A stretch of DNA of 33,072 nucleotides from a virus (lineage: Duplodnaviria; Caudoviricetes). Positions 30,749 through 33,041 of the stretch are shown in pieces (positions within the stretch are counted from its first letter, which is position 1; every line of letters starts with the position of its first letter). The position numbers and the translations under genes were made by a program. Location of the stretch: the IMG/VR virus record IMGVR_UViG_3300035396_000152, positions 1 through 33,072 of that record; one strand, 5' to 3'. Below the pieces are notes generated by a model that had not been told where the DNA came from, searched no databases, and worked only from the letters and a program-made list of their open reading frames with translations.

Positions 30749-31165
30749 TCATTTACCCCCTTTAATTATTATCAGCTCTTGACGTGCTTTAACTATCTCT
30801 TTCGCAAAATTTTTATTATACGCTATGTGGTTCTCGTTGTTAAGCTCTTCGTTAATTTCTTCTAAGTGTCGCAAACACTTTTCAATGGATAATGTTTTCA
30901 TTGGCTTTGTTAGTTGCTTTGTTGCGCTGCCTTTAATTTTCTTTATACATTTTGGACACAAGCACTTATTAGGAGAAACATAGACCGTAGAACATCCATT
31001 GCACTTCCACTCTTCACAATTAGTCCCTTGTATATGTCCTAAATATTTTATTTTGTCAAGTCCAATAGTTTTCTCCATATCCTCTATTCTCTTCTCTATT
31101 TTCCTTTTAAGCAAAAATGTTTTTCTTATTTTTGTGAATATTTTTTCAGCATCCTTGACTTCCAT
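30749..31165 (-). CDS. Hypothetical protein with CxxC...CxxC
   Basis: GAGGAGG RBS; CNGC and CPKC. Confidence 0.7.
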   Translation of the reverse strand: MEVKDAEKIFTKIRKTFLLKRKIEKRIEDMEKTIGLDKIKYLGHIQGTNCEEWKCNGCSTVYVSPNKCLCPKCIKKIKGSATKQLTKPMKTLSIEKCLRHLEEINEELNNENHIAYNKNFAKEIVKARQELIIIKGGK

Positions 31166-31218
31166 TTTTTCCTCCTCGAAAGTTTACTTGCGTTCTGTCT
31201 TGCACAAAATGTTATTGC

Positions 31219-31270
31219 ATCTAAGTTTTAGCATGATGCCGTTTTAATGGCATTCATGCTATTGTTGGGC
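31219..31270 (-). repeat. attC-like site E (degenerate R')
   Basis: GCCCAAC AATA GCATGAATGCC ATTAAAAC GGCATCATGC TAAAA CTTAGAT; the GTT core reads CTT. Confidence 0.65.
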
Positions 31271-31687
31271 GTTGTTGCCCACAGTGCTAGGGATGGCACT
31301 CTTAATTTCACATGGTGTTACTACTTCAATATCAAAAGTCCTTGTTACTTCCGATGTATAGCTTAGGATTGAACCACACTCGCCGCATTCATAATCTTTG
31401 CTTTCGTCTTTCGCTTCCCACGAGTCATGATTTTCACAGCCACATACAGGACATTTTATATAGGGCTCATAGTACAATTCTTTTTCATCCATATTTATAT
31501 TGATAGGCTTCAAAAAACCAACATTCTGCTTTAGTAGTGCGCTTGCTATTTTGTATTTTTTGTCACCGATAGATACTATGTCTCCAAACTCTACATCATC
31601 TCGCTCACACAAGATATGAGCAGAAGATGGGTCGAAGTTTTCAGTGTAAATTATGTGTTTGTCTTGTGGTCTCAGTATTAGCTTCAT
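31259..31687 (-). CDS. Zinc-ribbon-containing hypothetical protein (cassette gene)
   Basis: CPVCG...DSWE...ECGECG; stop falls inside attC-like site E. Confidence 0.75.
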   Translation of the reverse strand: MKLILRPQDKHIIYTENFDPSSAHILCERDDVEFGDIVSIGDKKYKIASALLKQNVGFLKPININMDEKELYYEPYIKCPVCGCENHDSWEAKDESKDYECGECGSILSYTSEVTRTFDIEVVTPCEIKSAIPSTVGNNAQQ

Positions 31688-31723
31688 TGTCTCTTTCCTT
31701 TCTTCTTAGCGCCACTCTTAATT

Positions 31724-31882
31724 TTATTTTCTGCCTTTGCATTTTTCTCTGTCTTCATTACATCCTTTACATGGGTCTCCTTGTGCATTCACTAATCCAA
31801 AACAAATTTGACCAGGAAGAGTACAGGTTTTTGGCACATAACCTTGACGAATACATAAATCTAACATGATGTCTTTTTCCAT
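31724..31882 (-). CDS. Small Cys-rich protein (52 aa, cassette gene)
   Basis: Not in track; AAAGGA RBS; MEKDIMLDLCIRQGYVPKTCTLPGQICFGLVNAQGDPCKGCNEDREKCKGRK. Confidence 0.7.
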   Translation of the reverse strand: MEKDIMLDLCIRQGYVPKTCTLPGQICFGLVNAQGDPCKGCNEDREKCKGRK

Positions 31883-31913
31883 AATTCCTTTCTTTGTCTT
31901 GTGGTGGTTTTGC

Positions 31914-31968
31914 GTACAACGTTTGCCGCTTTGTGAAGCGTACTAGTTTTATAAAGCGGCTGTTGAGT
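31914..31968 (-). repeat. attC-like site D
   Basis: ACTCAAC A GCCGCTTTAT...ACAAAGCGGC AAAC GTTGTAC. Confidence 0.7.
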
Positions 31969-31991
31969 GCTGTTGTAAATCGCATTCCATA

Positions 31992-32195
31992 TTATTCCTG
32001 CGCGGCGATTCTTTTTCCGTACTCCAGGCCGTACAGAAACATACGGAAAGCATTGTTTGTCTCACCGTGCTGATACCAGTTGCCAACAGGTGCGTTTATT
32101 TCTTTGTCAAACCGATAACGGCCAAACCCATAGTTAGAAACTGTTCTCTCGAAAAACTCGACCGCTTCGTACCACTCTTTTGATTTTGGTTTCAT
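31992..32195 (-). CDS. Hypothetical protein (cassette gene)
   Basis: GAGGAG RBS; 67 aa. Confidence 0.75.
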   Translation of the reverse strand: MKPKSKEWYEAVEFFERTVSNYGFGRYRFDKEINAPVGNWYQHGETNNAFRMFLYGLEYGKRIAAQE

Positions 32196-32253
32196 TTTCT
32201 TCTCCTCGCCGCGCCTATAATAAATTGTATTGTCTTGGCGCGAATTAAATTTC

Positions 32254-32344
32254 CTACAACGTATCTGCTATGGTGAAGTTGCGTACTCGCAATTTGGGTC
32301 GGAGCTTGCGGAAGCAAGCGTAGCCACCATAGCTTTTGTTGGAT
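32254..32344 (-). repeat. attC-like site C (long central region)
   Basis: ATCCAAC AAAA GCTATGGTG...CACCATAGC AGATAC GTTGTAG. Confidence 0.7.
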
Positions 32345-32603
32345 GCTGTGCTTTTGCGCGTGCCTTTGGTTCTTTCTTAACCATTATTTTGAAATAAATT
32401 GTTTTTATGTCATACCCTCTTTTCTCAAGTTCCTCGACAAAGGAATCGTCAAATTTAATACCTATATCTGCACCAATGTCAATGCTTGGTCTTTTGCTAC
32501 ATAAAACATTATTGAGTAAAGCCCCATCACACCGTCTTGGATAGCGGAACAGAATATCCTTTTGTCTTTTATCCCACATTGCTGATAATGAAAACTTCCC
32601 CAT
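32268..32603 (-). CDS. Hypothetical protein (cassette gene, reads into attC-like site)
   Basis: Start MGKFSL behind AAAGGA; SFVEELEKRGYDIKT. Confidence 0.7.
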   Translation of the reverse strand: MGKFSLSAMWDKRQKDILFRYPRRCDGALLNNVLCSKRPSIDIGADIGIKFDDSFVEELEKRGYDIKTIYFKIMVKKEPKARAKAQHPTKAMVATLASASSDPNCEYATSP

Positions 32604-32658
32604 CTTATTTCCTTTCGAGTGTGAAACACGCGCTACTGTCTTCGCGCAAAACAATTGC

Positions 32659-32716
32659 TTACAACGTATCAGGCATGATGCCGTGTTCCTGCATGGCAAT
32701 CATGCCGTTGTTGTGT
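32659..32716 (-). repeat. attC-like site B
   Basis: ACACAAC AACG GCATGATTGCC...GGCATCATGC CTGATAC GTTGTAA. Confidence 0.75.
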
Positions 32717-32930
32717 GTTGTTTGAGCGATGCAACCAGGGATGGTTGCTCTTCTGCCTCAATTATATCCTTCATAGTTATTCCCGAACTCCCACTTAATG
32801 GGTGCTTCATCGTTCTATATGCAAACTTAGCTTTGTTGCATTTAGTACATCTACAAATCTGAATCAGAAAATGGGCGTTGTAGTTTATAAAATCTACATC
32901 TCTCCATTTTGTGTATTTATGAAAGCACAT
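32700..32930 (-). CDS. Small C-H...C-x2-C protein (cassette gene)
   Basis: MCFHKYTKW...QICRCTKCNK; stop lies inside attC-like site B. Confidence 0.65.
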   Translation of the reverse strand: MCFHKYTKWRDVDFINYNAHFLIQICRCTKCNKAKFAYRTMKHPLSGSSGITMKDIIEAEEQPSLVASLKQHTTTA

Positions 32931-32980
32931 TTTTATTCTTTCTGTGCAACACGATGTTGCACTCTTATCGCTCAAATTTC

Positions 32981-33041
32981 ACACAACGTTGGAGCATGAT
33001 GCTGTGCCGCTTTGGGCATTGCATTCATGCGGTTGTTGTGC
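32981..33041 (-). repeat. attC-like site A
   Basis: GCACAAC AACC GCATGAATGC...GCATCATGC TCCAAC GTTGTGT. Confidence 0.75.

Follow-up and report, generated by a model that had tools for sequence, protein, structure and literature searches.

Organization of the array

The window, meaning the whole 33,072-base stretch that was analysed, is one whole virus record. The minus strand carries all of its genes for terminase, portal, capsid, tail, helicase and methyltransferase; the DNA methyltransferase gene (PF01555, 26794-28104) directly precedes the terminase genes. The last 1.9 kb of the window contain five attC-like sites, denoted A to E, which bound four units of 322 (A-B), 405 (B-C), 340 (C-D) and 695 bp (D-E), all read on the minus strand. 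The window stops within this array, and the unit that site A closes continues past the end of the contig. The same proteins are found in another contig, of 38,554 bases.

The plus (bottom) strand folds of all five sites are more stable than those of shuffled sequences. Site A (32981-33041, z = -2.7) extends from R'' GCACAAC to R' GTTGTGT; site B (32659-32716, z = -4.3) has spacers of 5 and 8; site C (32254-32344, z = -4.4) is long, with a branched tip; and sites D and E lie at 31914-31968 (z = -3.3) and 31219-31270 (z = -5.2). AAC/GTT R''/R' cores are present in sites A-D, while the R' of site E lacks the G of GTT, likewise in a second assembly (L319), and site E is therefore likely to be dead. 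Sites A, B and E have an extra-helical bulge at a distance of 11 nt from AAC; C and D have none. The R'-side spacers, read directly, are 7-8 nt long where classical attC sites have 5-6, and the sites do not have the classical extra-helical base at L'' position 4.

Cassette A-B (32665-32986, including the site B core) has a 91-residue ORF (32700-32975) of no recognized family, which stops within site B. Its 21-nt start arm (32967-32987) is complementary to its end arm (32710-32730), which lies within the ORF. Cassette B-C (32260-32664) is similarly arranged, with a 112-residue ORF of no family (32268-32606) that passes through site C, a 23-nt start arm (32643-32665) and an end arm (32338-32360) within the ORF. 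Cassette C-D (31920-32259; ORF 31992-32195, 67 residues, no family) has weakly pairing arms at 32240-32260 and 31962-31983, offset by 1 nt. Cassette D-E (31225-31919) carries two ORFs, of 52 residues (31724-31882) and 142 residues (31259-31687; phrog_14328, zinc-ribbon-like), and its arms are at 31900-31920 and 31264-31283. A further cassette-type start at 31197-31225 precedes the ORF at 30749-31165; no partner end for it was found downstream.

The ORFs of A-B and B-C and the longer ORF of D-E extend across the end arm and terminate within the attC-like site (32700-32730, 32268-32360 and 31259-31283), so that arm and hairpin are also coding sequence. The motif AAGAC or AAGAG occurs 21-29 nt past the crossover in all five cassette starts of the window (31197-32987, minus strand) and in 6 of 213 other starts of the class described below; it is perhaps a lineage-specific leader. 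A small hairpin with a TCCC loop, on the minus strand just ahead of the end arm, is common to A-B (32731-32748) and D-E (31283-31300).

Neither a scan of 36 proteins nor tblastn detected an intI gene in the 33 kb around the five sites; the same protein scan, and tblastn with two array-linked recombinases, found no recombinase in the window. A promoter scan stayed below shuffle level, Rfam gave no match, PADLOC gave none for six proteins, and the array DNA had no match in named phages. The D-E protein has no relatives in the viral contigs searched; one other protein was found, at 47%. Relatives of the terminase were found in 48 loci, most of which stop short of the array position; sites were seen only in the near-identical assembly L319, which may come from the same sample as the window and is therefore not an independent observation.

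Complementarity of the cassette ends

The original prediction held that the start of each unit matches the reverse complement of its own end beyond the attC core. All the start and end strings that it quoted are found in the sequence, on the minus strand. In A-B the start (32987-32967) and the own end (32710-32730) match at 18 of 21 letters, with mismatches at positions 9-11 only; in B-C (32665-32643 and 32338-32360) 17 of 23 match, including a perfect 9-mer at positions 15-23. As a null, the 213 other units of the class were used both ways, giving 426 non-cognate pairings, scored beyond the constant motif. None of these reached the scores of A-B and B-C, either by alignment or by duplex energy, and the rule holds for these two units. 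It is borderline for the other two: the score of C-D was reached by 22 of the 426 pairings by alignment and by 45 by energy, and that of D-E by 34 and 32, respectively. The start of C-D has a duplex energy of -8.1 with the end of B-C, as against -6.4 with its own. D-E had been described as a weak match from the outset, and its arms indeed share 5 nt only.

The proposal that a circularized unit would fold into one long hairpin at its junction was modelled in silico, with a similar outcome: the cognate pairing is best in A-B and B-C, is tied in D-E and is not the best of five in C-D. The modelled bottom-strand folds are more stable than the top-strand folds in all four units. The interruption of the stem, previously taken for an internal loop, is not a random loop; it corresponds instead to a motif of the class (G-M-A-A-T in the start; G-N-T-G-T in the end, read back). 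Positions 4-7, the R box, are matched at 4, 2, 1 and 2 of 4 letters in A-B, B-C, C-D and D-E, and at all four in 122 of 136 well-paired units of the class. The R box is eroded in three of the four units, and the window thus holds two strong and two eroded examples of a long-arm class.

Cassettes of the same class in other genomes

When the flanks of sites C and D served as the basis of pattern scans, matches were obtained in 88 genome loci and 46 viral loci, some of which are chance hits; the loci come from Clostridia, Bacteroidota, Patescibacteria, Spirochaetia, Fibrobacteres and others. From these, 216 non-redundant units between adjacent sites were obtained, with the neighbouring sites called without information on cognate pairing; units that span a missed site were kept in the set, which lowers the cognate means. 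Other patterns were less productive. With a loose CATGA/TCATG pattern 119 viral loci were obtained, of which the matches shown resembled chance occurrences within coding sequence; no locus fitted a strict window-type pattern, and 8 fitted an AAGAC pattern, one of them with a class-like singleton (L274).

The own-end rule extends to these cassettes. Over the 216 units, 4.3-6.4 of the 7 letters at positions 13-19 match between cognate ends, compared with 1.8-2.3 between non-cognate ends. The means are 6.42 against 2.31 in one Vallitaleaceae genome (97 units), 4.31 against 1.89 in 23 viral loci (64 units, 3 of them from the window) and 4.47 against 1.82 in 21 other loci (55 units); the best of 5000 permutations per set gave 2.82, 2.52 and 2.47, respectively. 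The Vallitaleaceae (Clostridia) array comprises at least 159 cassettes, with one family of about 40 copies (L120, L129, L131, L177, L264-L268).

Position 11 is a fixed non-standard pair in the class. It is A in the start and G in the end, read back, in 152 of 152 well-paired units, with a detector that required the A and scored the G, so that the result is partly set by the detector; with a looser detector, which only scored both, it is A in 100% and G in 86-96% of 136 units. The pair is a G-T wobble when the bottom strand is folded, and A-C, a mismatch, when the top strand is; it could thus mark the strand to be cut. Other wobble-type mismatches favour the bottom strand by 34 to 11, though T/G, with 34 cases the most frequent stray mismatch, is a wobble on neither strand.

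Comparison with classical integron cassettes

For comparison, 21 classical integron loci were collected (19 beside TIGR02249-positive genes, and two named phages), 18 of which gave 92 units. In these the cognate pairing stops at 8-12 nt, in line with the 9-11 nt given by Bouvier et al. 2009 (PMC2727003), and positions 13-19 are at background, with 1.55 matches in cognate and 1.61 in non-cognate pairings. The outer stem is absent from these classical units, in line with the suggestion that it does not belong to the standard attC site. An extra-helical base is found at the classical offset in 61 of the 92 control units; such counts of geometry, class against classical, are partly so by construction, because each of the two detectors had spacer ranges of its own.

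With the classical sites of IntI1 and VchIntIA the class shares the RYYYAAC/GTTRRRY-like cores, the bottom-strand hairpin and the G^TT crossover, as well as the presence of one gene per unit and a core that is owned by the upstream cassette. It differs in pairing cognate ends to 19-23 nt rather than 9-11, in its fixed non-standard position 11, in an R'-side spacer of 7-9 rather than 5-6 nt, and in a bulge that is displaced (two bases further up in A, B and E) or missing.

Clusters of attC-like sites in phages with no integrase in view, termed CALINs, have been published by Qi et al. 2023 (PMC9892861), where IntI1 was active on five of the six sites tested; the main text of that paper gives no account of long arms. 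As far as it extends, the window resembles these clusters. The sole site of the six that lacks a verified IntI1 product, P12002L_attC1, has 5/8 spacing and class-like flanks. This does not amount to clean experimental support, however, since P12002L_attC2, also with a class-like flank, did recombine. In Polaribacter phage P12002L (L280:29237-30960) two methyltransferase genes are encoded on the minus strand, and the class-like sites that surround them on the plus strand; the genes are thus inverted relative to their sites.

Recombinases adjoining host arrays

At least two sites were called in 64 loci, and among these five genomes have a recombinase in the stretch examined. The Vallitaleaceae array is headed by a 336-residue tyrosine recombinase. 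Some 60 nt separate its stop codon from the start of the first cassette, which has an arm that matches the end of the first site; first cassettes begin right after the recombinase gene in both L264 and L151. The Vallitaleaceae protein matches the integron integrase model TIGR02249 in two pieces and under the cut-off, and the solved structure that it matches best is that of an archaeal Xer protein. In four of the five array recombinases the distance from the KGxKDR to the RHS motif is 60-61 residues, compared with 102-103 in four IntI proteins; in the fifth (L139) the alignment leaves no room for the IntI insertion. The units of L139 and L173 pair poorly.

The best structure and family matches of the array-linked recombinases (archaeal XerA, PDB ID: 4a8e; NF040815) share the lack of the IntI insertion, which sets these enzymes apart from those of classical integrons. 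They differ from typical Xer proteins in scoring 202 and 208 against NF040815, where the cut-off is 220, and in the location of their genes at the head of cassette arrays. The putative link between enzyme and sites is one of neighbourhood. At its N terminus, one recombinase of the array type (L254:564-1676) shows weak HARP-like similarity (PF07443; E = 1.5e-4, under the cut-off); some others are shorter and seemingly without this part. Recombinases of this kind near attC sites were judged not to be IntI by Cury et al. 2016 (PMC4889954).

Natural variation at the crossovers

Six microbial-mat runs carry the array stretch of the window as contigs; no RNA data sets were among the holders listed. 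Contig depths are not read as frequencies. In one contig (X4) position 31222 is joined to 31918, so that 695 bases, unit D-E with its own downstream core, are skipped, and both cuts are at predicted crossovers; the joint is seen in a single contig whose shorter side has 23 letters, and joints of this kind call for caution. Contigs from X1, X2, X3 and X5 depart from the window at 32262, two bases beyond the site C crossover, all to one other upstream sequence. The 30 letters of it that are visible hold a short hairpin, and it may be another attC site or the primary insertion point of the phage.

In an X5 contig the start of B-C follows another hairpin core (32669), and in an X2 contig other class-type flanks surround an E-like core. 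An X3 contig joins 30740 to 31504, with 763 bases skipped or replaced, away from any site, indicating that not all variants are site-bound. A 92-base X1 contig departing at 32665 was set aside, as it has 3 differences in 44 letters and may belong to another organism. No back-joint of the kind that a cassette circle would give was found among the assembled contigs listed.

Integron cassettes are recognized by loss or gain at G^TT together with their own downstream site. This is found here in the one 695-base skip and in the divergence at sites B and C: the units of the window behave as cassettes bordered at G^TT. Taken with the advantage of cognate over non-cognate ends and with the lack of an extension in classical units, this behaviour argues for a distinct class of site, one of the two readings that the original prediction had offered.

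Origin and role of the long arms

The units of the window are integron-like cassettes bordered at G^TT, and their matching ends are, on balance, probably the two halves of a split long outer stem that would be read in the circle by a host recombinase without the IntI insertion. When a cassette is closed into a circle, its own start and end would pair on the folded bottom strand and so restore, below the crossover, a stem of about 19 bp. The wobble at position 11 may then indicate which strand is cut, and a host enzyme acting in trans would add cassettes to the phage and remove them. Decay of older, settled cassettes would account for the damage to site E and for the weakness of the arms in C-D and D-E.

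The other reading offered, that the arms are a trace of how cassettes are made, with one end copied from the other and no role in recombination, is unlikely. It would account for arms that vary from cassette to cassette and yet are complementary, for the lack of any compensatory change seen among homologous cassettes, and for the spread of eroded cassettes: the most amplified Vallitaleaceae family (39-40 copies) has broken arms, so that a perfect stem is not required for spread, and D-E is missing as a block in X4 although it is almost armless. However, in 8 small diverged families within one host genome (159 cassettes; bodies 70-93% identical) the arms are 99% identical, while flanks and bodies are 84% and 83% identical. 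This indicates selection on the arms and favours a functional stem over a relic. Plain copying would also not leave position 11 unpaired in all 152 well-paired units, a count that the detector partly sets. Pairing of the arms on either side of the gene within a linear single strand of DNA or RNA, either as a clamp that joins neighbouring sites or as a control of excision or expression, is still less probable. The arms do flank the gene in the array and could pair without circularization, and the end arm lies within an ORF in three units; but the pairing begins exactly at GTT/AAC and extends the attC hairpin in the modelled circle, and the greater stability of the bottom-strand folds disfavours a role at the transcript level.

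It is very improbable that the array is a common phage CALIN made up of classical sites, on which IntI acts and in which the somewhat long pairing arose by chance. Its GTT/AAC cores, its hairpins, the single bulge in sites A, B and E and the published activity of phage CALIN sites with IntI1 would fit such an array, but not a pairing that goes on where that of classical units ends, the longer R'-side spacers, the bulge two bases further up, or arms in A-B and B-C that outscore all 426 null pairings. The view that the units are transposon-like elements of small size, bounded by terminal inverted repeats and located between terminator hairpins, can hardly be credited. Unit-specific inverted ends of about 20 bp recall such elements, yet the repeats differ in each unit, the X4 deletion takes the unit with its downstream hairpin, and the downstream core is more alike than the upstream core in 14 of 18 cassette families of one host. 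The cores thus track the upstream unit, and this linkage contradicts the transposon model.

The reading of the ends as a split stem, used by a host recombinase, has to be weighed against several observations. There is no recombinase in the window, whose contig ends within the array; recombinase-bearing genomes are few (five), with poor pairing in two (L139 and L173). The family with broken arms is the most amplified, no compensatory changes were seen among homologous cassettes, and the T/G stray mismatches are not wobbles. The X4 joint is on one contig, the X3 joint is off-site and no circle appears in the assembled contigs.

Implications for integron-like systems

The long-stem units are a real and apparently unpublished variant of integron cassettes; no published account of long split arms was found in the literature searched, which largely excludes subscription papers. 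The window is a partly eroded phage example, and its own contribution is the natural variation at the crossovers: mat contigs without the whole D-E unit (one contig) or with neighbours changed at G^TT crossovers are new here.

Integrons are defined by the integrase insertion that reads the bulges of the hairpin. It is quite possible that a second, undescribed integron-like system exists, with Xer-like recombinases that lack the IntI insertion, a 19-bp split stem, and a fixed wobble that replaces the extra-helical base as the strand mark. Such a system would extend across Clostridia, Bacteroidota, Patescibacteria and phages, and would reshuffle phage accessory genes in trans in natural populations. 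Surveys of integrons leave out recombinases without the insertion (Cury et al., PMC4889954).

The long stem offers a direct assay, in which it is cut, scrambled and restored, and the unit-specific complementary arms constrain the open question of the origin of cassettes. If such enzymes do move long-stem cassettes, a large gene-capture system would have been missed, Clostridia included, with phages drawing on it.
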